A stretch of 20,000 nt of DNA from sequence record SRR20825006_1225; one strand, written 5' to 3'. The notes beneath the pieces were generated by a model. The model was not told the DNA's origin and made no database searches. It saw only the letters and a list, made by a program, of their open reading frames with translations. A program made the translations under genes and the position numbers. How positions within the stretch are numbered: position 1 is the first letter of the stretch; each line of letters begins with the position of its first letter. This document shows positions 9,287 to 20,000 of this stretch, piece after piece.

Positions 9287-10819
9287 TTAAAACAAAAATC
9301 TTATACCAGCTACTATATTAAGAGACTCGAAGTCTTGGTTCACATATGAGTTTACCAAGTTACCTGAAGTAACATCCGAGTAACTATATAACACTGAACG
9401 GTCCGTCCAAGTTGAATATTGCCCGGAAATATCAAAGTTTATTGAATTAGTTAAAGGGAGGGATAAACCTACTGAAAACACATTTTGTTCAACTTTATAT
9501 GTTTTACTTTTTGCTGGATATAATGCATACCCCCCTTTGATCTCAGTTCTGTTATTTAGCTTATAAGCTGCGCCAATTTTAAGATTAGCTACCGAATTGT
9601 AATCTTGCTTAATTTCGGCATTAATTTCTTGCTCATTTTGCAATAACGATGCCTTCTCGCTTGGATCTGAAATTTCAGTCTCTAATAAACTCAGTTTGAT
9701 GTTTCTATAATCAATAAGCTCTGCTGATCCAGAAATACTGAAACCTGCAATATCTAATATTGATCCCCCAATATTAAATTGGGCTGGGCGAGTAATAGCG
9801 TATTCAAATTCACCAAAAAAATCGTAGGTATCTGTTGCAGTTCCGTCATCAAAATCAGACTTAATTCCAGAAGAATAACTCTCTATAATAACAAGTTTGC
9901 TAGGCAGAGTTAAACTTGCGCCAACTCTAGCTTTCTCTCCCAAAGTATAAGCCAGACCAGTACGAATTGTAACTCCCACAATATCCGAATCGATATCATC
10001 AGCTAAAGTTATGCGTTCAATGTCTGTTCCACCGTTGCCATTTCCATCGGCTCCTATAAAATCTCCGTCATAATCATTAAACTCGTCAAACTCCTGAAAA
10101 TTTCTAGAATAACTCGATGAACCAGATGTTAGGCCAATAGAGATGCCTGCGTATAAGTTCTTCTTAAACTCTGTTGCCGTGAAAAAACTGAACTCACCCA
10201 TTCTTCTTTTGTTATTAACATCCACAAATTGCGTTATTCCTGGATATTGACTTGGCGTAAACCCAAGTCTGAAAATCGATTCATAATAGGTCTCTTCAAC
10301 ATCTCCAAATTCTATGGCGTAGGCATCGTAAGCAATACCATTATAACTGCTTGATGGATCCACAAACATATCTGTAACTGTACTCGACGAATTTCTTCCG
10401 TTTATAAAGGCTTTATTGTCATAAACTTCTTTCAGATCATAACCAGCCCCAATTACTAAGCTACCTTGAGAAGTTGGGATCTTATAGAGCATCCCAATAT
10501 TGCCAAAGTCCGTATTCCCAAAGCTACTCGATGCACTACTATTTAAATACGAGCTAGTTTGGTTTTGATTAGAATAAAACCATGCAATACTTACACTGTT
10601 TTCTTTAGCCAAGGCCATTACTGCTGGGTTATCAATCAAGCTACCAAAACCATTATATGAAGAAACGGATGGCACTACCATTGAGGCCGCATCACCATTT
10701 GAAGAATTTGAGCTAAACTGGAGTCCTAAGCTTTTATATGAAATCGGAGATTCTCCATTTTGCGCACTTAGATTGAATGCTAGAAATAGTCCTAGCATTA
10801 AGAGTATTGTTCTCTTCAT
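9287..10819 (-). CDS. OmpP1/FadL-like outer-membrane beta-barrel protein
   Basis: Signal peptide (LSA-Q), hatch-region NPA motif (LIDNPAVMA), alternating amphipathic strands (LYAGISIGL, NLKIGAAY, FDISGQY), C-terminal AGIRFLF beta signal. Confidence 0.75.
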   Translation of the reverse strand: MKRTILLMLGLFLAFNLSAQNGESPISYKSLGLQFSSNSSNGDAASMVVPSVSSYNGFGSLIDNPAVMALAKENSVSIAWFYSNQNQTSSYLNSSASSSFGNTDFGNIGMLYKIPTSQGSLVIGAGYDLKEVYDNKAFINGRNSSSTVTDMFVDPSSSYNGIAYDAYAIEFGDVEETYYESIFRLGFTPSQYPGITQFVDVNNKRRMGEFSFFTATEFKKNLYAGISIGLTSGSSSYSRNFQEFDEFNDYDGDFIGADGNGNGGTDIERITLADDIDSDIVGVTIRTGLAYTLGEKARVGASLTLPSKLVIIESYSSGIKSDFDDGTATDTYDFFGEFEYAITRPAQFNIGGSILDIAGFSISGSAELIDYRNIKLSLLETEISDPSEKASLLQNEQEINAEIKQDYNSVANLKIGAAYKLNNRTEIKGGYALYPAKSKTYKVEQNVFSVGLSLPLTNSINFDISGQYSTWTDRSVLYSYSDVTSGNLVNSYVNQDFESLNIVAGIRFLF

Positions 10820-10850
10820 GATATTATAAATTACTTAGTCGTGAATTGCC

Positions 10851-12050
10851 TTAGTTCCGTTTTTTTGTAGAACTACTTTTCTTTTTAGATGTAGGTGATG
10901 AGCTGCTTCTTTTTACAGTTGACCTACTAGTGGAACTAGGTGTAGAACTTCTTTTTACAGTGCTTCTTGTTGTACCTGACCGTTTGGTACTGGTACTTTT
11001 AGTAGTCGATCTAGTTGGAGAAGTAGTCGTTCTTGTAACAGGGGTACTTCTTCTAGTTGTAGTGGTACGTGTTGTTGTACCACTACTTCTATTCGTATTC
11101 GTTCTTGAAACAGTTCCTGAAGATCTCTTTGAAGAATTATCGGTATTTACCTTTGTTCCAGTTCTACCTGTAGAACGTTTTGTTGAACTACTAGAACTTG
11201 AGCTTGAACGAGATTTACCAACAGTGCTACTTCCAGAACTTCTACCAGTGGTAGTACTTCTTGTTGTAGTACTTGTTCGAGTCCTAGTTACATTTGAAGT
11301 TCCTGTTGTTCTGCTACCTTTGCTATAAGTACTAGAACCAGAATCGTTTCTACTACGTAGTGTTGAACTATTTGCTCTGTTCCTTGTATTATTGGCATTT
11401 GTCAAACCATTACTTCTTACACGATAATCTCTCTTTTTAGTATACCTGCTTGTATAATTACCGTGATAATTATTAATTATAAAATAATTGCCGTAGTAAC
11501 CGTAATAGCCATAGTTATCATAATATGGGTTATACCAAGGTGTGCTCCAATAAAATGGGTCTGTAACTGCGTGGTAGCTGAAATTAGCAAAACTAAACTC
11601 AAACATATTTCTAAGCTGATAATGTCTTGAGTAAGCAAAGGCTGAAAAGTGATGTCTCCTTGGGTGATAATTTAAATATCGATATGAATAATACTTGGAT
11701 GTATAGTCATCTCTTGCATCGTCATAACCGTCATCATAACCCGACCAATAAACATCAGTTAGGTTATTTTCGGAATACCATTGCTCTTTTTCGTAGTCTT
11801 TGTAGTATAAATCTAAATTTTCGTAAACCTCTTCTTCTTCAACAGGGATATATTCTTTAGCCGTTTGTTCTCGTTCGTACCAGTTATCCCCCTCTTGTGC
11901 AGATTCGTTATCATTCCAGGCGTAATATTCTGATTGACGATTATATCCATCTCTGCCATCTAGAACGTCTAAGCTTTGTAACTGGGTATAGCAACCGCTC
12001 ATAAAAAAACTAACAGCTAATAATGGTAAAATAGTTCTAAAGCTTTTCAT
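10851..12050 (-). CDS. Hypothetical lipoprotein: acidic/Tyr-rich N-half, Ser/Thr/Arg-rich low-complexity C-half
   Basis: Lipobox-like FMSG-C followed by YTQL; 399 aa open; ends 31 nt before the FadL-like gene start; AAGGAG 8 nt upstream of its ATG. Confidence 0.85.
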   Translation of the reverse strand: MKSFRTILPLLAVSFFMSGCYTQLQSLDVLDGRDGYNRQSEYYAWNDNESAQEGDNWYEREQTAKEYIPVEEEEVYENLDLYYKDYEKEQWYSENNLTDVYWSGYDDGYDDARDDYTSKYYSYRYLNYHPRRHHFSAFAYSRHYQLRNMFEFSFANFSYHAVTDPFYWSTPWYNPYYDNYGYYGYYGNYFIINNYHGNYTSRYTKKRDYRVRSNGLTNANNTRNRANSSTLRSRNDSGSSTYSKGSRTTGTSNVTRTRTSTTTRSTTTGRSSGSSTVGKSRSSSSSSSSTKRSTGRTGTKVNTDNSSKRSSGTVSRTNTNRSSGTTTRTTTTRRSTPVTRTTTSPTRSTTKSTSTKRSGTTRSTVKRSSTPSSTSRSTVKRSSSSPTSKKKSSSTKKRN

Positions 12051-12138: not shown

Positions 12139-12771
12139 TTAAATCTCTCCACGTAGTGATTTAGCAATTACTTCCGCTTTTGAGTTGACATGAAGTTTTT
12201 TATAGATATTTCGGATATGCGCTCGAACCGTATCAATAGAAATATCAAACCTGTCGGCAATCATCTTATAACTCAGCCCGTCAACTAAACCATTAACAAT
12301 ATCTTGTTCCCTAGAAGTTAGCATGCTATCTGGGTTTTTCTTTGGCTTCTGGTCGTTAAAGTGTGTAATTACTTTTCTTGCAATTTGTGGTGACATCGGG
12401 GCACCACCTTTTAAAAGCATTTCAATGGCTTCTTTAATTTCAGGAAGTGAAGTATGCTTCAATAGATAACCAGAAGCGCCTGCTTTTAGCGAATCGAAAA
12501 TTTTGTGCGAGTCGTGATAAATGGTGAGCATGATTATATCTACATCAGGATACTTTTCCTTGATTACTTCCATTCCTTTTATGCCAGACATCCCTGGTAA
12601 TTGAATGTCCATAAGAATAACATCTGGTTGCATATGTTTCTCAAGAAACTCTAGCATTTCCTCCACGCTATCTACTGCTACTGGACATTCAAGCCCATCC
12701 TGCATATCTAAATAACGTTGAATCAGATCTCTGATTTTGACATTATCTTCTACAATTCCAATTACAGCCAT
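12139..12771 (-). CDS. NarL/FixJ (LuxR-HTH) family response regulator
   Basis: REC motifs IVEDN, ILMDIQLPGMSG, MLT, GASGYLLK; HTH LTSREQDIV..GLSYKMIA..ISIDTVRAHIRNIYKKLHV. Confidence 0.95.
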   Translation of the reverse strand: MAVIGIVEDNVKIRDLIQRYLDMQDGLECPVAVDSVEEMLEFLEKHMQPDVILMDIQLPGMSGIKGMEVIKEKYPDVDIIMLTIYHDSHKIFDSLKAGASGYLLKHTSLPEIKEAIEMLLKGGAPMSPQIARKVITHFNDQKPKKNPDSMLTSREQDIVNGLVDGLSYKMIADRFDISIDTVRAHIRNIYKKLHVNSKAEVIAKSLRGEI

Positions 12772-12780
12772 AATAATTAT

Positions 12781-15657
12781 TTAGTTGGCGTTTAACTTGC
12801 CCATTATTGTTATAGTAAAACCATTTTTATTGCTAACATCAACACTTGCACCAATTCGTTCTGCCCGCATTTTCATATTCCTTAGACCATGCCCTGTTTT
12901 CTTAGGGCCCATTCCTGAGCTACCATTGTCGTGGATAGTAAATGTAAAGCTACTACTTTCAGTATGCATGGTTATGCGAACTAAATCTCCGTTAGAGTAT
13001 TTAGATATATTATTAGCCGCTTCCTTAAAGATTAAATACAGATTCTCTTTTAATGGGACCGCTAATTTGTTCTGCATTTTCAGATCTTCAAAATCGTATT
13101 GAACGTTAAAATTCTTGGGCTCTAGCACATTAAGCACATAATCTTGCATTCTATCTGTTAAATCTCCAAGAGTATCATTCCTAGCATCTATAGACCAAAC
13201 GATATCATCTAAGCTCGTTACAATTCTACGGCATTGTGTTCCAATCTGACTCAATGATTTTTTAAACTCTGGATCTGTATCAATGGCTTGAAGAAAATCT
13301 GATTGGAGAGCAATTTCGGTTAAACTAGCGCCCACGTCATCATGAAGATCACTTGCAATTCTAACTCGCATACGTTCTATATCCACCAGCTTTGTTGTTT
13401 TATAATAGCTATAGAACAACCAAATAATACCCACAATAACAGCACCACAAAGAATAAAGAACCACCATTGCAGCCAAAAAGGAGTACTAACGGAAATGGT
13501 TTTCTTTGTAATGATATCACTCCAAGTTCCATTTGTGTTTTTAGCAAGTACACTAAATGTATAATCTCCGCTTGGTAAGGAGGGATATTTTGCAAATCGA
13601 TCGGTTGTCCGTTGCCAAGTGGGGTCAATACCTTCCATCTTGTACTCATACATAATTTGATTCGGAGCTCTGTAATTAATACCCGAGAAATATATTTCTA
13701 CGAAATTCTGTTCGTAAGAAAGATCTAGATGCGTTTTGTTTGTATAGACTCTGCCAGATGCGATTATCTCATTTATTTTCACCTCTGGAGAAACAGGGTC
13801 ATAGTTATATTTTGGAATAAAAAAGTGACTCATACCCTCCACACTACCAAACCATAAATGTTTTTGAGAATCCTCAAAGACAGCTCCTAAATTCATTTCA
13901 TCTGAAATAAGACCTTGTTCTTTAGAAATTATTTGAAAAGCTTGGTCTTTTTCGGTGGGAATTTCACTATAGAATTTCGCGGCGTCAAATCGAGCAATAC
14001 CGCTGTTTGTGCCAATCCAGTAAATGCCATCTTCAGTTTGTTTTATAAAATAACATACTCTATTTGGTAAGCCGTCATCTACCGTTATGCTTTGGAATTT
14101 CTCGCCATCAAACCAGGCAATCCCTCCAAAAGTTGATACCCAAACAGTACCTTTTAAATCTACGATAATCGTCATTATCGCATTATTAGGTAAGCCGTTT
14201 TGGAGGTTGAAGGTTTCAAATTTTCCATTACTGTATCTACTTACACCACCGTACGTAGCTATCCATAAATTCCCTTCCTTATCTTCAACAGCTCCTAAAG
14301 TAGTGTTATCGGCTAGACCGTCTTCAACTAAAAATTGTTGGTAAGATTTTCCATCGTACCGAATTATGCCTTCTTCGTACGTACTTATCCAGAAGTCACC
14401 TGACTTTGCCTCATAAATCTGCCTAATTTTTCTAAACGGGAATTCTGATTCTTTAAAATTTCTGATTTTACCGTTTTCGATGATAGAAAGACCATTCCTC
14501 ATCCCTACCCAAATTCGTTTTTCCGAATCGTATTTAAGTGTATATACTTTGTCGTCTTGTAAACCTTGATCTAAGCTGATATTTTCAAAGGTACCATTTT
14601 TGTATTTGCTAATGCCTCCGCCGTAGGTTCCTATCCAAGTTATTCCGTCATCACTTTCAGTAAAAGAGGTAACTACGTTATTTGCTAGTCCTAAATCTGT
14701 AGTATAGTTTTCAAAGTAATCTCCTAAAAAAAGATTTACACCACCACCAAAAGTTCCAAACCAAAGGTTGCCTTCTCTATCTCTTGTGGCAGAATAGATG
14801 ATACCGTTAGATAAGCCATTTGCAGTAGTAAAATTTTTGAATCTATTTTGGTCAAAAAGGCTAATCCCTCCTTCGGTTCCTAGCCAAAGCCTACCAGACT
14901 CATCATAGCTTAAGGTTTGGACTTTTGAATTTCCAAGACCTTCATTTTCGCCATAAGTGGTAAACTGGTTGTTCTCGAATTTTGTAAGTCCATTTCGAGT
15001 GCCTATCCACAGAATGCCTTTTTCATCAAAAATAATATCTCTAATTCTATCTTCCGGCAAACCGTCTTTAGTTAGGTATGTTCGGATGTTGCCGAAGCTA
15101 AGTTGGGTTAACCCTTCACGAGTTGCAAACCACATATCGCCAGAGTCGCTTTCGATAATTCTTCGAATTCTGTTGTTTTTAAAACCTTGTGTGGTTGAGT
15201 ATTGATATAATTCTTGATCTTTTTGATACAACCAAACTCCATCACCATCGGTACCAAACCACATATCGCCTTTAGAGTCTTCGAAAATGCTAATTATTTC
15301 CATGTTATCCAGTGCCGAAAGCTCTGGTACATAATAAACACTATCGCCCTGAAAGTAGTTTAAGCCAGAAGCGGTTCCAATCCAGAGCCTTTGTTTACTA
15401 TCTTCAAACAAAGCAAAAATTTTACTATTTTGAAGCCCTTGATCCTCAAAATAGCTCTGAAACTCAATTCCGTCAAAGCTATTCAGTCCGTAGCCAGTAC
15501 CCATCCACATGCTACCCTCATGATCTTGAATTATTGAATGAACTACAGACTCACTTAATCCATCCTCAATAGAATAGGTACGAAATGGATAATATTGTGC
15601 GGTTATGTTTGGAGCTATCCAAACAAGGGAGATTAGTAAGAATAGAAATTTCTTCAT
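12781..15657 (-). CDS. Sensor histidine kinase: Reg_prop beta-propeller repeats, Y_Y_Y domain, one TM helix, HisKA_3 and HATPase
   Basis: Many DxxGxxWxGTxxG / DGLxxN repeats; YEYKMEG..W..YPSLPSGDYTFSV; PFWLQWWF TM; H-box RIASDLHDDVGASL; KEAANNISKYS; GHGLRNM. Nine nt from the regulator gene. Confidence 0.93.
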   Translation of the reverse strand: MKKFLFLLISLVWIAPNITAQYYPFRTYSIEDGLSESVVHSIIQDHEGSMWMGTGYGLNSFDGIEFQSYFEDQGLQNSKIFALFEDSKQRLWIGTASGLNYFQGDSVYYVPELSALDNMEIISIFEDSKGDMWFGTDGDGVWLYQKDQELYQYSTTQGFKNNRIRRIIESDSGDMWFATREGLTQLSFGNIRTYLTKDGLPEDRIRDIIFDEKGILWIGTRNGLTKFENNQFTTYGENEGLGNSKVQTLSYDESGRLWLGTEGGISLFDQNRFKNFTTANGLSNGIIYSATRDREGNLWFGTFGGGVNLFLGDYFENYTTDLGLANNVVTSFTESDDGITWIGTYGGGISKYKNGTFENISLDQGLQDDKVYTLKYDSEKRIWVGMRNGLSIIENGKIRNFKESEFPFRKIRQIYEAKSGDFWISTYEEGIIRYDGKSYQQFLVEDGLADNTTLGAVEDKEGNLWIATYGGVSRYSNGKFETFNLQNGLPNNAIMTIIVDLKGTVWVSTFGGIAWFDGEKFQSITVDDGLPNRVCYFIKQTEDGIYWIGTNSGIARFDAAKFYSEIPTEKDQAFQIISKEQGLISDEMNLGAVFEDSQKHLWFGSVEGMSHFFIPKYNYDPVSPEVKINEIIASGRVYTNKTHLDLSYEQNFVEIYFSGINYRAPNQIMYEYKMEGIDPTWQRTTDRFAKYPSLPSGDYTFSVLAKNTNGTWSDIITKKTISVSTPFWLQWWFFILCGAVIVGIIWLFYSYYKTTKLVDIERMRVRIASDLHDDVGASLTEIALQSDFLQAIDTDPEFKKSLSQIGTQCRRIVTSLDDIVWSIDARNDTLGDLTDRMQDYVLNVLEPKNFNVQYDFEDLKMQNKLAVPLKENLYLIFKEAANNISKYSNGDLVRITMHTESSSFTFTIHDNGSSGMGPKKTGHGLRNMKMRAERIGASVDVSNKNGFTITIMGKLNAN

Positions 15658-15859
15658 AACTACTATTGCTGCAAATAATCAATGCTAGTGTACATTTATA
15701 ATGATAAGTTAATTACGGTTAAAACGTTAAAGTATTTTTATCGGCTTAATCAATCTTGCAGTTTTAAAACATGTAATAACTCAAATCGAATATTGTATAA
15801 GAACAGTCGTTTAAATTACTTTGTCTTTCTTTACAATTCTAAAGCATCAGTTTCTATAA

Positions 15860-16387
15860 TTGAAAAAGTCGATTTCCATCTTACTTCTTCTTTCTTTTAT
15901 CACCCCATTTTGGGGAGCTGTGACGATTCTGCAGTTTCAAAAAGCACAAACCCGATTAGAAGTTAAGAAACAAATAAAGGCTGGCTTTTTGCTTGAAGAA
16001 CTTACTCTGCTTAAATTTTCTAAAACGGAAGCCGATGAGCTTTTGCATTGGGAACATGATAAAGAGTTTGAGTTTAATGGCCAGATGTATGACATAGTTG
16101 AACATGGGGAATCGGGCGATTCTCTTTGGTTTTTAAGTTATTGGGATCATCACGAAACCAAAATTAAAAGGAAACTAAATGAACTTATATCTTCGAATGT
16201 AAAACCCATCGTACATAGCAGAGATGCTGTAGCAACTTCGTTTATTCAAATTAAAGCTAATTTTTTTCAGTACACGTATCATTTGTTAAATGCTAATGTG
16301 AGAAAATATCTATCAAAGCCAGAATACATCGCTCAGATTTTTCACACCGATATAGATTCTCCAACCACCCCGCCTCCCCAAGTTTAA
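15860..16387 (+). CDS. Hypothetical membrane-targeted protein ending in PPP; candidate leader/regulatory ORF of the downstream TonB-dependent receptor
   Basis: TTG start, MKK plus hydrophobic segment, core WEHDKEFEFNGQMYDIV..WDHHET, C-terminus DSPTTPPPQV; fills the gap between the kinase and the receptor. Confidence 0.8.
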   Translation: MKKSISILLLLSFITPFWGAVTILQFQKAQTRLEVKKQIKAGFLLEELTLLKFSKTEADELLHWEHDKEFEFNGQMYDIVEHGESGDSLWFLSYWDHHETKIKRKLNELISSNVKPIVHSRDAVATSFIQIKANFFQYTYHLLNANVRKYLSKPEYIAQIFHTDIDSPTTPPPQV

Positions 16388-16464
16388 TAGAGATCACCAC
16401 TTTTAATTAAATGATTAGTGCGAAGCAGAATCTCACTATTTTACTATTAAACGAAAAGATACTT

Positions 16465-18870
16465 ATGAAACACATTTTGTTAATGTGGTTCTTTCTAGGG
16501 CTTTGTGCGGTAAGTAACGCCCAGATTATAACCATTAACGATAAAGTAACTGACCAACCTATTGAGCTAGTTACTATATACAGTGACTCCCCTAGTTTTT
16601 ATGCCATTACAAATGCAAAAGGTGAAGCTGATATTTCGAAATTCAAAAACGTTGAGATTATCTTAATCCGGCGGATAGGCTATCGTTCTATTACAATGAG
16701 CTACGAAGACCTTAATACACGGAATTTTATAATTTCTCTATCTCCTTCAAACATCTCGATGGATAAACTAGTGGTTTCGGCTACACGCTGGCGCCAAACA
16801 AAATCAAATCTTGCTTCAAAAATAACTTCCGTAACACCTCAGCAAGTAGAAGTTCAAAATCCACAAACAGCGGCCGATTTACTGAGCCTTTCTGGAGAGG
16901 TTTATGTACAGAAAAGTCAACTTGGAGGAGGAAGTCCGATGATTAGGGGATTTTCTACCAATCGACTTCTTCTTGTGGTAGATGGAATTCGAATGAATAC
17001 AGCCATTTTCAGGAGTGGTAACCTTCAAAATGTAATTTCTCTAGATCCTTTCGCAATTGAACATACTGAGGTCTTATTCGGTCCCAGTTCCGTAATTTAT
17101 GGAAGCGATGCTCTTGGTGGAGTTATGAGTTTCAACACCCTCACTCCAGGCCTATCGGCTTCTGAGGAACAATTCGTATCAGGTAATGCAGTAGCTCGTT
17201 ATTCATCTGCCAACGATGAAAACACTTATCACTTTGATGTTAGCTTAGGCACAGAAAAATGGGGTTCCATAACCAGCTTCACTAATTTTAATTATGGTGA
17301 TCTTGAGATGGGAAGTCATGGTCCTGAAGAATACCTCCGCCCTGAATTTGTTCAACGAATTGATGGCTCCGATGTGGTGATTGCAAATAAAAATCCACAA
17401 ATACAGCGAACTACAGGTTATTCACAAACAAATTTAATGCAAAAGCTCCGTTTTAAACCCAACGATGATTGGGATTTTAATTATGGCTTTCATTACTCCG
17501 AAACTTCCGATTATGATCGTTATGATCGTTTAATTCGGTATAAAAATGGTTCTCCTAGAAGTGCCGAATGGTACTATGGACCTCAGATTTGGGTAATGAA
17601 TAATTTTTCTATTGCCACAAAAACAGAATCAGCATTTTTTGATGATGCCAAAATTCGGCTAGCTCATCAGTATTTTGAAGAAAGCAGAATAGATCGCGAT
17701 TTTAATGGTACTCAACGTTTTAGTAGAATTGAAAAAGTGAATGCTTATTCCGCTAATCTTGATTTAGTGAAAAAGCTCTCCGATAACCAACAACTTTTCT
17801 ATGGTGTTGAAAGTGTTTTTAATGATGTAAGCTCTTCAGGAACTGACACTGATATAAGTACAGGCGTAACTGTAAAAGGTTCGCCTCGCTATCCAGAATC
17901 GACCTGGGCTTCTTATGCTGCGTACCTAAACTACATGTACGAGATTAATCCAAAGTTAACTTTACAAGCTGGTACTCGGTACAATCAGTTTGTTTTGGAT
18001 GCCGAATTTGAAAACACTTTTTATCCATTCCCATTCAGCGAAGCACATCTAAATAGTGGGGCTCTAACAGGAAGTATAGGTGTTGTATTCAAGCCAGAGA
18101 AATCGATTGCTATAAATACGGTTCTTTCAACGGGTTTCAGATCTCCAAATATTGATGATGTTGGAAAAGTTTTTGACTCAGAGCCAGGCTCCGTTGTTAT
18201 ACCAAATCCAGATCTAAAATCTGAATATGCCTATAACGCAGAATTAGGTGTGAATAAAGTCTTTAATGATGAACTTCAAATAGATGTAACCGGCTATTAT
18301 ACGCTCTTAGAAGATGCTTTAGTCCGAAGAGATTATACCTTAAACGGACAGAGTCAAATTATGTACGATGGCCAATTAAGTCAGGTTCAAGCTGTACAGA
18401 ATGCAGCAAAAGCTACCATTTTTGGAGTTCAAATTGCGGCCGAATTATCTTTACCTGCTGGCTTTGATGCGTCTTCTCAGTTCAATATTCAAAAGGGTGA
18501 AGAGGAATTAGATAATGGCGATAAAAGTCCTTCTCGACATGCTGCGCCGTGGTTTGGGACTACCCATCTTAAATACAGTGCTAATCATTTGAAACTAGAT
18601 TTATATGCTATTTATAGCATGAAAGTAAGCTATAAGAATCTCCCCGATGAAGAAAAAGGAAAAGATTATATGTACGCCATTGACGCTAATGGAAATCCAT
18701 ATTCTCCAGCATGGTACACGCTAAATCTGAAAAGCATTTACCAAGTTACCAAGGTGTTCTCTTTTTCTTCGGGAATTGAAAACATCACAGACCAGCGCTA
18801 CCGACCGTATAGTTCAGGTATTGTTGCCCCTGGTAGAAATTTGATATTTGCTGTTAAAGCGGATTTCTAA
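16465..18870 (+). CDS. TonB-dependent receptor (N-terminal CarboxypepD_reg-like domain, plug, barrel)
   Basis: ATG 16465 gives a clean signal peptide MKHILLMWFFLGLCAVSNA-Q; LVVSATRW; plug GGGSPMIRGF..LLVVDGIRMN..GPSSVIYGSDALGGV; GFRSPN, NPDLKSE, GIENITDQRY..PGRN, terminal F. Confidence 0.94.
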   Translation: MKHILLMWFFLGLCAVSNAQIITINDKVTDQPIELVTIYSDSPSFYAITNAKGEADISKFKNVEIILIRRIGYRSITMSYEDLNTRNFIISLSPSNISMDKLVVSATRWRQTKSNLASKITSVTPQQVEVQNPQTAADLLSLSGEVYVQKSQLGGGSPMIRGFSTNRLLLVVDGIRMNTAIFRSGNLQNVISLDPFAIEHTEVLFGPSSVIYGSDALGGVMSFNTLTPGLSASEEQFVSGNAVARYSSANDENTYHFDVSLGTEKWGSITSFTNFNYGDLEMGSHGPEEYLRPEFVQRIDGSDVVIANKNPQIQRTTGYSQTNLMQKLRFKPNDDWDFNYGFHYSETSDYDRYDRLIRYKNGSPRSAEWYYGPQIWVMNNFSIATKTESAFFDDAKIRLAHQYFEESRIDRDFNGTQRFSRIEKVNAYSANLDLVKKLSDNQQLFYGVESVFNDVSSSGTDTDISTGVTVKGSPRYPESTWASYAAYLNYMYEINPKLTLQAGTRYNQFVLDAEFENTFYPFPFSEAHLNSGALTGSIGVVFKPEKSIAINTVLSTGFRSPNIDDVGKVFDSEPGSVVIPNPDLKSEYAYNAELGVNKVFNDELQIDVTGYYTLLEDALVRRDYTLNGQSQIMYDGQLSQVQAVQNAAKATIFGVQIAAELSLPAGFDASSQFNIQKGEEELDNGDKSPSRHAAPWFGTTHLKYSANHLKLDLYAIYSMKVSYKNLPDEEKGKDYMYAIDANGNPYSPAWYTLNLKSIYQVTKVFSFSSGIENITDQRYRPYSSGIVAPGRNLIFAVKADF

Positions 18871-18872
18871 AC

Positions 18873-18902
18873 AAAAGGCTCTCTATGAGAGCCTATTTCT
18901 TT
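18873..18902. terminator. Probable bidirectional terminator between convergent genes
   Basis: AGGCTCTC-tat-GAGAGCCT 8-bp stem with an A run on the left and ATTTCTTT on the right. Confidence 0.75.
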
Positions 18903-18960: not shown

Positions 18961-19551
18961 TCACAGTTTTTTGGATATTACTAATGCATCTAAACTTGAG
19001 GTATCAAAAGCTTTAACCTCTTTGTAAGAATCTAACCTATAGAGCAAAGTATCATTCCTCTCAATATTCAAAATTCCTTCTAAGGATGCATCCACATGAA
19101 ACATATTGTATACTATTAATACCTGAGGCACGTAACCTTCCAAATTAAATTCACTCCAAATGTAGTACTGAGATCCCAAGTTATACCAACCTCCACCAGC
19201 TATAACTTCATCAAAGTAACCTGACTTTGTTAAAAAATCATACCCAACTTTTGAATCGATATCTGTTGATATTCCAGTAGAGAAGAAACCAATGCCTTTG
19301 GCTTTGGCAAAACTTCTCACTCTCATTTTCAAACTTTTCAGTTCGTTATGAAGTGAATCATTACAATAAGAACACCCTTCTGATCCAATATAAACCAACT
19401 GTAAGTACTCGCCACCTTTAAAGTCTTTAATCCCGCTTTCCGAAGCTCTCTCTGTTTTAGCATTATAAAATTTGGGTAAAATATAAACCCCGATTATTAC
19501 CCCTATAAATACTATAATTATTAATATCCTATTGAATATTTTATCGCTCAT
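18961..19551 (-). CDS. Membrane-anchored hypothetical protein with CxxC, probable thioredoxin-like fold
   Basis: N-terminal TM (ILIIIVFIGVIIGVYIL); strand LQLVYIG then CSYC then helix; later YVPQVLIV at the expected cis-Pro position. Confidence 0.7.
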   Translation of the reverse strand: MSDKIFNRILIIIVFIGVIIGVYILPKFYNAKTERASESGIKDFKGGEYLQLVYIGSEGCSYCNDSLHNELKSLKMRVRSFAKAKGIGFFSTGISTDIDSKVGYDFLTKSGYFDEVIAGGGWYNLGSQYYIWSEFNLEGYVPQVLIVYNMFHVDASLEGILNIERNDTLLYRLDSYKEVKAFDTSSLDALVISKKL

Positions 19552-20000
19552 AATTTTTTAATTTATAGATATTGAAAAAAATTTTCCCGTTTTTCTGTCT
19601 AATTAAATGCCTGCTTGTTACCCAAATGTTTTCGCTTTCAACAAAACTTTGACCGAGGTAATGGGATTTTCCTCTTGATGTATTGATTAAATAGAAGTCT
19701 TGTGATTCATCCCATTTCAACCCCAAATCAGTTACTCTTCTGTTACCGTAATGTCGAATCGTAACCATCAATGTATTGTCGGTAACTTTAGTCACATCCT
19801 GTATTAAACTCCAATCAGAAAAGTTTACAAATAGCTCTTGAGTTGAAGGAACATATCTTCTCTTTGCGATATTGAATCCCGAAAAATTGTATTTCTTAGT
19901 CAACGTTCCATTTTCAAAATGATATAAATAGGGAATCAAATCGAAGTATTGTATTAGGTGTTGATCAACTTCATTGGAGTACCTTATTTTTCCCGATGAA
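19541..20000 (-). CDS. C-terminal part of a hypothetical protein (possibly beta-propeller), truncated by the right edge
   Basis: The frame of ORF 19541..19939 stays open to the window end (SSGKIRYSNEVDQHLIQYFDLIPYLY...), so the TTG start at 19939 is an edge artefact. Short beta-strand-like pattern, ends FNIYKLKNYER; overlaps the next gene by 11 nt. Confidence 0.65.
   Translation of the reverse strand, partial: SSGKIRYSNEVDQHLIQYFDLIPYLYHFENGTLTKKYNFSGFNIAKRRYVPSTQELFVNFSDWSLIQDVTKVTDNTLMVTIRHYGNRRVTDLGLKWDESQDFYLINTSRGKSHYLGQSFVESENIWVTSRHLIRQKNGKIFFNIYKLKNYER

Follow-up and report, generated by a model that had tools for sequence, protein, structure and literature searches.

A conserved proline-tailed small gene upstream of heme-type TonB-dependent receptors in Bacteroidota, a candidate pausing leader

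In SecM, MifM and VemP, a membrane or secretion signal at the N terminus is paired with an arrest segment, about 17 residues long, at the C terminus. In Bordetella pertussis, CruR (Bp2923, DUF2946) is encoded upstream of the TonB-dependent transporter BfrG and acts post-transcriptionally and in cis (PMC9426467); the spacer between the two genes is 162 nt, as quoted in PMC9973294. CutF of Rhodobacter capsulatus is the exported product of a proline-tailed upstream gene that acts in cis and is followed by a spacer stem-loop masking the Shine-Dalgarno sequence, and its proline motif is reported to cause no detectable arrest in a LepB reporter (PMC9973294). The CutF-like proteins described there include many Bacteroidota members with TonB-like neighbours (PMC9973294). 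Upstream open reading frames with RAPP or RGPP motifs are enriched before TonB-dependent receptors in Gram-negative bacteria (PMC12992588). Bacteroidota are described as lacking Shine-Dalgarno sequences (PMC6847099), and the CutF mechanism is therefore not directly transferable to this phylum.

Here, we describe a small gene directly upstream of a heme/hemoglobin-type TonB-dependent receptor in a 20,000-nt stretch of DNA (the window; sequence record SRR20825006_1225), together with the family to which it belongs. We give an even chance to the reading that small gene, spacer and receptor form one cis-regulatory unit, a pausing leader like CruR and CutF built on an unrelated, larger protein. The features of the locus are as follows.

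15810..15837, plus strand: promoter-like site (TTTAAA, 16 nt, TACAAT), 23 nt 5' of the TTG start, from a consensus scan alone
15860-16387, plus strand: small gene, an open frame of 175 codons with a TTG start and a TAA stop at 16385-16387
15872..15934, plus strand: N-terminal membrane helix, about residues 5-25, from hydrophobicity and the structure model
16001..16198, plus strand: conserved core, a beta domain (residues 48-95) and a helix (97-113), from family alignments and AlphaFold2
16220..16312, plus strand: second helix, residues 121-151, from the structure model (pLDDT 72-81), variable in sequence and kept in length
16325..16384, plus strand: C-terminal motif region, residues 156-175, in the window YIAQIFHTDIDSPTTPPPQV; counted by position from the last PP in 247 sequences
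16370..16378, plus strand: PPP codons CCG CCT CCC (P171-P173), the proposed pause site, followed by Q, V and the stop
16388..16464, plus strand: spacer of 77 nt between small gene and receptor
16416..16438, plus strand: weak hairpin TAGTG...CACTA in the spacer, extended inwards by 2 bp; the closest relatives have a stronger hairpin
16465..18870, plus strand: TonB-dependent receptor of 801 aa, heme/hemoglobin type, with a CarboxypepD_reg-like N-terminal domain, Plug and barrel
18876..18894, plus strand: terminator-like hairpin 3' of the receptor, from a consensus scan

The TTG codon at 15860 is directly preceded by an in-frame TAA. The region has as many promoter-like sites as shuffled sequence is expected to have, and the site at 15810..15837 is therefore weak evidence. 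The translation, counted by eye, contains eight His and no Cys, and P168 is encoded at 16361-16363. The receptor ATG at 16465, 77 nt past the small-gene stop, was favoured over an in-frame ATG at 16411 by an alignment of 78 orthologues. An initial annotation of this DNA had described a 175-aa frame with a TTG start, PPP at 16370-16378, a 77-nt spacer and eight His without Cys, all in agreement with the sequence. The span that it gave, 15860-16467, begins at the right position, but its end takes in the spacer and the receptor start codon, the frame itself stopping at 16387. Its statement that no terminator separates the two genes agrees with the consensus scan, which found no terminator-like site between them.

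Homologues of the small protein formed 6667 clusters at 50% identity across Bacteroidota and allies, and the gene was present in 64 of 401 sampled Bacteroidota genomes, about 1 in 6. Most members were 174-180 aa long, with about 176 aa typical. No model in the Pfam and NCBIfam profile libraries matched the small protein or its family, and a literature search found the family nowhere described. The protein atlas placed only unnamed Bacteroidota clusters near the small protein; the nearest named one, DUF2946/CzcI, stood at 0.84, a score that chance often gives. Several thousand sequence clusters stand without a name, a profile or a proposed function. The weak TTG start that had been pointed out in the window proved to be conserved: the homologous start codon was TTG at 68 of 80 loci, GTG at 5 and ATG at 5, while the start codon of the receptor was ATG in 78 of the 78 mapped among those loci.

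The hydrophobic 19-residue N-terminal segment had a mean Kyte-Doolittle value of 2.2 across 205 family members, and the structure model of the small protein contained a continuous helix from residue 2 to 43. Family alignments demonstrated conservation of the membrane helix, with Pro16 nearly invariant, and of a set of invariant or nearly invariant core residues (W64, H66, E69, F70, E71, M76, Y77, D78, D96, E99 and T100). AlphaFold2 modelled the conserved core blocks with pLDDT 94-98, against a mean of 85 for the whole model and moderate confidence (pLDDT 55-73) for the C-terminal tail. The protein is large, and a domain so confidently modelled and so strongly conserved is what one would expect if it had a function of its own, an observation that counts against a leader. 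A Foldseek search of the PDB with two models gave a best E value of 0.17, and a wide VIA-align search with the first model gave nothing above Z 7.8; the top rows of both were unrelated helical proteins. On these models, no fold can be named for the small protein. Complex prediction with receptor residues 21-240 and small-protein residues 27-175, run without family alignments, returned a score of 0.00 and a mark of 0.34; this lends no support to a complex and weighs neither for nor against one.

The composition of the window's protein was not typical of its family. H66 was the only one of the eight His conserved at 90% or above, and Cys93, conserved at 90% or above in the family, is replaced in the window by Ser. 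A His-rich, Cys-free composition was found to be a trait of the Balneola copies only, and the proposal of a His-rich, Cys-free metal sensor fails for the family as a whole. Lys and Arg residues flanking the membrane helix numbered 4.8 after it versus 1.7 before it, and of 163 sequences, 134 had a positive net charge difference across the helix, 19 had none and 10 had a negative one. By the positive-inside rule, the positively charged flank of a helix stays cytoplasmic; thus, the domain of the small protein is predicted to be cytoplasmic. As to an N-terminal signal peptide, the observations are a hydrophobic helix and a charge bias that points to an uncleaved anchor. Because the domain is predicted to be cytoplasmic, sensing of export force is unlikely, and the suggested sensing of export status or of a periplasmic metal is doubtful.

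The receptor matched the Pfam models CarbopepD_reg_2 (below the Pfam cut-off), Plug and TonB barrel. Its best-scoring NCBIfam subfamilies were TIGR01785 (200.5 bits) and TIGR01786 (201.3 bits), though neither score reached its cut-off (316.85 and 323.75, respectively), and the nearest solved chain was PhuR (E 1.2e-18). An orthologous heme/hemoglobin-type receptor lay directly downstream on the same strand at 78 of 80 family loci, so that the adjacency to TonB-dependent receptors put forward as a check by the initial annotation is kept among homologues. Any other neighbour gene was common to at most 11 of the 80 loci, and asd, sought as a synteny marker, was not found among the neighbours. Strains of Marivirga, Spirosoma and Fulvivirga were represented in the set of loci. 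The small gene was always upstream of the receptor and never downstream. It stood without a receptor at 2 of 80 loci, in one case because of a transposase gene insertion. When loci were seeded from the receptor, the small gene was present at 14 of 14 in one set and 58 of 78 in the other, leaving 20 close receptor homologues, about a quarter, without it. Dependence is thus asymmetric: the small gene almost never occurs without the receptor, whereas the receptor often occurs without the small gene.

The proline tail was also kept, as the same check had specified. Its conservation in relatives, like that of the TTG start and of the receptor adjacency, speaks against a chance arrangement. PP occurred within the last 20 residues of 247 of 248 sequences, the sole exception (L020) having PP in frame behind a TAG. 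Among 168 proteins, 162 carried PPP and the other 6 PP; the gap from PPP to the stop was 2-4 residues in 127 of these 162. The motif is PPxPPP[KEQR], usually 2-4 codons 5' of the stop, within a C-terminal consensus (Y...[YF]xS[ILV]x[LIF]xPP[TS]PPP[KEQR]hx-stop) in which conservation spans about 17 residues. PPP was preceded by S, T, V or A in 129 of 162 proteins, and Arg was not among the residues listed. The residues after PPP were moderately conserved, position +2 being hydrophobic in about half of the proteins; a pause at PPP leaves this conservation unexplained, which counts against a leader. The distance from the MYD of the core to the last Pro was 96-99 residues in 217 of 227 sequences, the linker being variable in sequence and constant in length. 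C outweighed G in the region surrounding the stop (-180 to +30), for example with fractions of 0.39 versus 0.12 over the final 30 nt. By itself, PPP slows the ribosome mildly and EF-P relieves the pause; EF-P was present in the nearest related genome examined.

For two genes of one operon, the family spacer is long, with a median of 93.5 nt (interquartile range 79-101). An Rfam search of the spacer matched no family. Spacers across the family were structured (mean z -2.0; 31 of 68 below -2), and in 17 Aequorivita-type spacers two hairpins had 92.8% of cells paired, a level reached by 0 of 500 shuffles and compared with 38-59% in slid controls; 8 of 11 of their pairs showed compensatory changes. 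Mean z was -2.41 for spacers with the small gene (32 of 57 below -2) versus -0.34 for those without it (1 of 22 below -2), the one structured spacer in the absent set, L193, being a mis-sorted locus that does bear the leader. Thus, the structured spacer occurs only where the small gene is present. The hairpin begins 8-36 nt past the stop and ends about 20-40 nt 5' of the receptor ATG, as judged by eye, and does not cover the receptor start codon. At two loci inspected by eye, the proline codons showed no clear complementarity to the arms of the hairpin. The window's own spacer showed no extra stability relative to shuffles (z -0.42; 0.20 for 16340-16500), and the weakness of its hairpin counts against a leader. 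A T-rich motif, TTATTTGTTTAAC, was present in 22 of 68 spacers versus 4.8 expected, having been picked by eye from the same sequences. The Bacteroidetes -7 promoter box is TAnnTTTG; the T-rich motif was rejected as such a box, as the spacing does not fit.

A published receptor may belong to the same arrangement. In Flavobacterium psychrophilum, the heme-type receptor gene bfpR is co-transcribed with an upstream hypothetical ORF, THC0290_1678 (PMC9331221). With haemoglobin, bfpR mRNA increased about 10-fold but the 5' portion of the transcript did not change, and control was post-transcriptional; the authors describe the mechanism as unknown and suggest that an RNase processes the transcript within the upstream ORF, giving 5' ends at -399 to -347 (PMC9331221). 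BfpR shares the CarboxypepD_reg-like N-terminal domain of the present receptor and likewise has a hypothetical ORF 5' of it. An ATG at about -635 from the receptor start would correspond to an ORF of about 179 aa and a spacer of about 95 nt, which fits the family. The F. psychrophilum record did not come up among the loci retained from four scans. By position and geometry, THC0290_1678 is a candidate member and a lead, and the family offers a candidate explanation for the published haemoglobin-dependent mRNA control of this receptor.

Several observations favour the pausing leader: the constant proline tail, the fixed linker length, the conserved TTG start, the fixed gene order with its asymmetric dependence, the long and structured spacer, the excess of C over G around the stop, the precedents of CruR, CutF and the RAPP/RGPP frames, the F. 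psychrophilum lead and the presence of EF-P. The fixed order and a spacer structure that accompanies the small gene lend indirect support to action in cis. Against the leader stand the mildness of a PPP pause, the lack of detectable arrest by the CutF motif and the lack of Shine-Dalgarno sequences in Bacteroidota. The conserved anatomy and the linkage are shown here, whereas we infer the pause, its modulation, the signal and the downstream step, which would operate as follows. The weak TTG start would make ribosome loading rare, and the N-terminal helix would tether the nascent chain to the inner membrane. Residues 48-151, comprising the beta domain and two helices, would have left the ribosome and folded before the final 20-30 residues cleared the exit tunnel. 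PPxPPP would then slow peptide-bond formation, and the ribosome would come to rest 2-4 codons short of the stop, where the sequence is rich in C and poor in G, about 20-45 nt 5' of the spacer hairpin. The dwell time at PPxPPP would decide what becomes of the receptor portion of the mRNA: the paused ribosome would either shield this stretch from Rho or RNase, as proposed for CruR, or alter spacer folding. Given where the hairpin lies between the stop and the ATG, a ribosome that pauses or terminates at the end of the small gene would leave it folded and would not expose the receptor start, which counts against a leader. How long the ribosome dwells would depend on a signal acting through the conserved domain, which is kept at a constant 96-99 residues from the last proline; heme is the best guess for this signal because the receptor is of the heme type.

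The most serious competitor, possible though on the unlikely side, is that the small protein is an ordinary inner-membrane protein of low abundance that serves the receptor system, or works together with it, in trans; it might, for example, regulate, take part in assembly or signalling, or handle heme. The PPxPPP tail would then be a structural or binding element, for example a polyproline-II helix docking on the aromatic residues W64, Y77, W94 and W95, either in the same protein or in a partner's domain, and the spacer hairpin a partial terminator or mRNA-stability element setting the product ratio. A confidently modelled core with a linker of constant length, a conserved membrane helix with its nearly invariant Pro16, and moderate conservation past PPP all suit such a protein; functional partners are commonly co-located, and conserved weak start codons also suit low-copy regulators. 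However, 20 of 78 close receptor homologues manage without the small gene, which is always upstream, and a structured spacer of about 95 nt is found only with it. The predicted cytoplasmic position of the domain argues against direct contact with an outer-membrane receptor, and the tail on which docking would depend is modelled with only moderate confidence.

It is improbable, in our estimate, that the prolines pause translation solely for the small protein's own biogenesis, allowing insertion, folding or oligomerisation before release with no effect on the receptor. The fixed distance between the folded part and the prolines and the N-terminal membrane anchor would fit this explanation, but the strict link to one receptor family, the co-occurring structured spacer and the nearness of the motif to the stop would all go unexplained; moreover, given the length of the tunnel, the membrane helix would be out of the ribosome some 110 residues before the pause. 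The version put forward in the initial annotation, a His-rich, Cys-free exported sensor of periplasmic metal or export status that gates receptor translation as SecM, VemP or CutF do, was suggested by the window's protein, with its eight His, absent Cys, hydrophobic N terminus and proline tail. We consider it highly improbable for the family, in which a single one of those His is conserved, Cys93 is nearly invariant though missing from the window, the strongly positive flank after the helix (134 of 163 sequences) disfavours export, and the start codon is left unmasked by the hairpin.

A more specific form of the pausing leader is a speculative proposal that we regard as unlikely to hold in full. 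A tethered, probably cytoplasmic domain of about 110 residues would serve as a folded sensor, and its ligand-dependent folding would set ribosome dwell at the end of the ORF and hence whether the receptor transcript is completed, kept or translated. We propose that the domain finishes emerging just as the ribosome reaches PPxPPP; the best guess for its ligand is heme, bound via the invariant His66, Met76 and Tyr77. If true, this would be the first arrest-type switch to use a complete conserved domain at a fixed distance as its sensor, and it would account for the haemoglobin-induced bfpR mRNA of F. psychrophilum.

Among known leader systems, CruR resembles the pausing leader proposed here. In both, a small gene whose product begins with a hydrophobic segment and ends in a motif containing proline lies directly 5' of a TonB-dependent transporter on the same strand across a long spacer, and the present gene heads a unit with such a transporter at 78 of 80 loci. 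However, the DUF2946 profile did not match 20 family members or the window protein, with members compared at E values up to 10. CruR carries CXXC, whereas the present family has the single conserved Cys93 and the window none; the CruR motif is RAPP, versus [STVA]PPP[KEQR] or PPxPPP here. The present protein is longer (about 176 aa), with a beta domain, two helices and a conserved TTG start, and its family is found in Bacteroidota and allied groups, where the receptors that it precedes are of the heme type and not copper-related.

CutF shares with the present family a spacer stem-loop, and is described as acting in cis with a sensor motif in its mature part; it differs in being exported, while the present domain is predicted to be cytoplasmic. 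Two of the features by which CutF-like proteins are recognised are also found here, in that PP lies within the last 20 residues of 247 of 248 sequences and a downstream gene follows across a spacer. The filter for CutF-like proteins requires fewer than 150 aa (PMC9973294), which leaves out the present family when its genes are called in full (175 aa in the window). RAPP/RGPP upstream ORFs resemble the small gene in joining a localisation signal to a C-terminal arrest-type motif with a receptor downstream, but their defining motif is absent here and PPxPPP is the candidate arrest motif. SecM, MifM and VemP likewise share an N-terminal membrane segment and a C-terminal motif of about 17 residues; the downstream gene here is not a Sec or YidC component, however, and about 150 residues separate the membrane helix from the motif, a distance over which insertion force would not reach the pause. 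If the small gene is a pausing leader, proline-tailed control of outer-membrane import would extend from Proteobacteria to a phylum without Shine-Dalgarno sequences, in which a different downstream mechanism would have to exist.

The initial annotation described this locus correctly: the TTG-start ORF, its His and Cys content, the PPP motif, the 77-nt spacer before a TonB-dependent receptor gene and the terminator-free junction were all confirmed. An in-frame TAA lies immediately 5' of TTG 15860, so the small gene has no possible earlier start. Its product has a hydrophobic N-terminus, eight His and no Cys, and ends in SPTTPPPQV, with the PPP codons at 16370-16378. A consensus scan found no terminator-like site between the small gene and the receptor.

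Features of the locus and its surroundings
15860-16387, plus strand: small gene, 175-codon frame, TTG 15860 to TAA 16385-16387
up to ATG 16465, plus strand: 77-nt spacer between small gene and receptor
from ATG 16465, plus strand: TonB-dependent receptor, 801 aa
15810-15837: promoter-like site (consensus scan)
18876-18894, 3' of the receptor: terminator-like site (consensus scan)
within 12139-15657, minus strand: histidine kinase (Reg_prop/Y_Y_Y/HisKA_3), 958 aa
within 12139-15657, minus strand: LuxR-type response regulator, 210 aa
within 9287-12050 or 18961-19999, minus strand: ORF of 399 aa, no Pfam family
within 9287-12050 or 18961-19999, minus strand: ORF of 510 aa, sub-threshold FadL/Toluene_X match
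within 9287-12050 or 18961-19999, minus strand: ORFs of 196 aa and 152 aa, no Pfam family

Pfam assigns the receptor a Plug and a barrel, together with a CarboxypepD_reg-like N-terminal domain that scores under the cut-off. Among NCBIfam subfamilies, heme/hemoglobin receptors score best (about 200 bits, under their cut-offs), and of solved chains the heme receptor PhuR is the closest (E 1.2e-18). Alignment with orthologues supports a start at ATG 16465, which opens the signal peptide (MKHILLMWFF); an in-frame ATG at 16411 would add 18 residues (819 aa in the ORF listing). The two-component pair at 12139-15657 points away from the small gene and is missing from the neighbours common to related loci; it is therefore probably unrelated to the module of small gene, spacer and receptor. 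The several ORFs at 9287-12050 and 18961-19999 have weak Pfam families or none.

A word-indexed search recovered 20 relatives of the small protein, and running a profile against 1.84 billion cluster representatives yielded 6667 matches at E <=0.001, 4086 at <=1e-10 and 1088 at <=1e-30. No Pfam model matched any of the 20 members, no NCBIfam model matched the window's protein, and no description of the family was found in the literature. A match was present in 64 of 401 sampled genomes of the phylum, all with completeness of at least 90%, representing 42 of 179 genera; within the genus of Flavobacterium celericrescens, 11 of 301 sampled genomes did. These sets share species and descent, so the counts that follow are not independent events. 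The closest named relatives belong to Balneola and Balneolaceae, and members also occur in Aequorivita, Marivirga, Fulvivirga, Spirosoma, Saprospiraceae, Lentimicrobium, Ignavibacteriales and others.

Near the C-terminus, 162 of 168 family proteins carry PPP and the remaining 6 carry PP. The last PPP is followed by 3 residues in 88 proteins, 2 in 25 and 4 in 14 (range, 0-15). Aligned by their last PP, proteins and translated loci gave the motif Y...[YF]xS[ILV]x[LIF]xPP[TS]PPP[KEQR]hx-stop in 247 of 248 sequences. The sole exception, locus L020, reads an in-frame TAG and then HAPPVPPPRLG-stop. In this stretch (L020:1948-1986, on a contig shared with L222, from a Bacteroidales MAG), the TAG lies eleven codons before the conserved end, after FPVV, and may reflect a sequencing error, a nonsense mutation or stop-codon read-through. 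The tail extends to very remote Flavobacterium members (E about 1e-7 to 1e-26), whose C-termini read PPPRFL or TPPDFV. The stretch between core and tail varies in sequence, and the distance from MYD to the last Pro is 96-99 residues in 217 of 227 sequences. At the codon homologous to the window's TTG, 80 loci had TTG (68), GTG (5) or ATG (5), with 2 unplaced; all 78 mapped receptors of the same loci start with ATG. Thus, the weak start is a feature of the family, not an oddity of the window.

Gene order was also conserved. A receptor orthologue lay directly downstream on the same strand in 78 of the 80 loci recovered by small-protein searches (77 within the scripted search interval, and L051 as an overlapping case), and any other neighbour was common to at most 11 of the 80. 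The exceptions were L062 and L069; in L062 (5058-6599, Polaribacter porphyrae), a DDE transposase gene 3' of the small gene occupies the expected receptor position, apparently as the result of insertion within the module. When loci were gathered by receptor searches, the small gene was present in all 14 loci having upstream DNA in a first set of 16. In a second set of 80, of which the 78 with at least 650 nt upstream were counted, it was present in 58 and absent from 20, one of which retains a fragment ending PPSPPPRFN. Comparison of the two kinds of search thus indicates a one-way dependence, of the small gene on the receptor and not the reverse.

The 20 receptors without the small gene (e.g., L191, L199, L221, L226, L228, L240, L247 and L250) are close homologues, with 59-72% identity over the first 240 residues, and the region upstream of them is unstructured. 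Balneola and Gracilimonas account for some of them, so the window's own family contains receptors with and without the small gene. Of 11 Flavobacterium loci, 8 (L172-L179) had a homologous receptor downstream that was missing the N-terminal domain; thus, the CarboxypepD_reg-like domain is not needed for pairing.

The spacer, from small-gene stop to receptor ATG, is long for an operon junction (median, 93.5 nt; interquartile range, 79-101; 78 loci). The 68 spacers of 40-135 nt, including the window's, folded more stably than mononucleotide shuffles (mean z of -2.0, with 31 below -2 and 49 below -1). Hairpin sequences vary between lineages. In 17 Aequorivita-type spacers, chosen by eye from the 68, two hairpins had 92.8% of cells paired and both-side changes in 8 of 11 pairs; this pairing was reached by 0 of 500 shuffles, and slid controls gave 38-59%. 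The window's own hairpin is weak (z of -0.42 and 0.20 in two folding runs), and its closest relatives retain a stem of 7-9 bp at that position. Among the receptor-seeded loci, the 90 nt immediately 5' of the receptor ATG had a mean z of -2.41 when the small gene was present (32 of 57 below -2) versus -0.34 when it was absent (1 of 22), and that one locus, L193, actually has the small gene. Thus, the structure belongs to the module, not to the receptor's own leader.

No Rfam family matched the spacer, and C exceeds G from -180 to +30 around the small-gene stop. A T-rich motif close to TTATTTGTTTAAC occurred in 22 of the 68 spacers on which it was itself defined (L004, L007, L011, L020, L032, L071, L074 and others), versus 4.8 expected. 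In 11 of these 22, its end lies 15-16 nt 5' of the receptor ATG. Candidate roles are those of a terminator U-tract, a promoter element and an initiation-region element; the motif was absent from the window with up to 3 mismatches allowed. Aequorivita-type loci (e.g., L010, L017, L022 and L043) also share a stretch close to TTCAATTTTACGACATTTG about 15-30 nt before the TTG; this TTCAATTTTACGACATTTG-like stretch may be the module promoter.

The small protein was modelled with AlphaFold2 from 149 aligned sequences (mean pLDDT, 85).

Modelled architecture of the small protein
residues 2-43: single long helix including the membrane segment, pLDDT 76-98 (10-residue blocks)
residues 48-95: beta domain of five strands and a short helix, pLDDT 94-98
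residues 97-113: helix, pLDDT about 94
residues 121-151: helix, pLDDT 72-81
residues 152-175: extended tail, pLDDT 55-73

No solved structure was found to resemble this model. W64, H66, E69, F70, E71, M76, Y77, D78, D96, E99, T100 and the prolines are invariant or nearly so. K+R averages 4.8 in the 15 residues that follow the membrane helix versus 1.7 in the short N-tail; of 163 sequences, 134 have a positive net difference, 10 a negative one and 19 none. Given this bias and the positive-inside rule, the bulk of the protein is predicted to face the cytoplasm. The initial annotation had proposed a His-rich, Cys-free, exported sensor of metal or export status; Cys93 is at least 90% conserved across the family, being Ser in the window copy, and that version now seems very improbable.

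Fixed gene order, asymmetric dependence, a co-occurring structured spacer, a weak start and invariant prolines near the stop collectively favor a cis-acting leader that works like CruR of Bordetella and CutF of Rhodobacter capsulatus. Ribosomes would pause on PPxPPP, placing them on the C-rich end of the ORF; the paused ribosome would control termination, processing or folding of the spacer, with the conserved domain adjusting the pause from a fixed distance. Several observations count against such a leader. Its size, conservation and confident model are those of a protein with a job of its own, and a trans-acting membrane protein is a possible, if less probable, reading. PPP is a mild pause relieved by EF-P, which is present in the nearest genome, and the residues after PPP are partially conserved. 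The hairpins lie clear of both the paused ribosome and the start codon, and since the phylum lacks Shine-Dalgarno sequences (PMC6847099), the final step would be without a known model. Weighing these points, we give the cis-acting leader about an even chance; a pause that serves the small protein's own biogenesis is unlikely.

As to the signal, heme is a fair guess, given the heme-type receptor and a case in F. psychrophilum. There, according to PMC9331221, BfpR, a receptor of the same description, is co-transcribed with a hypothetical ORF upstream, and haemoglobin raises bfpR mRNA about 10-fold with the 5' part unchanged, by a mechanism its authors call unknown. The distances given there are compatible with an ORF of about 179 aa and a spacer of about 95 nt; membership of this ORF in the small-gene family is a lead, not a result. 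The family's interest lies in its size, its unusual set of conserved features and this link to an open published observation.

No PPxPPP leader before a receptor in Bacteroidota was found described in the literature. In published systems, RAPP arrest in CruR stops Rho from terminating before the transporter gene (PMC9426467; PMC9973294), a proline-rich C-terminus and a spacer stem-loop in CutF control cutO, although no arrest was demonstrable in a LepB reporter (PMC9973294), and upstream ORFs of the RAPP/RGPP type show enrichment in front of TonB-dependent receptors (PMC12992588). Unlike DUF2946/CruR, the small-protein family has no match to that profile, no CXXC and no RAPP, and it breaks the length rule of the CutF-like set as published (PMC9973294). 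It appears to share the working logic of CruR/CutF-like systems.
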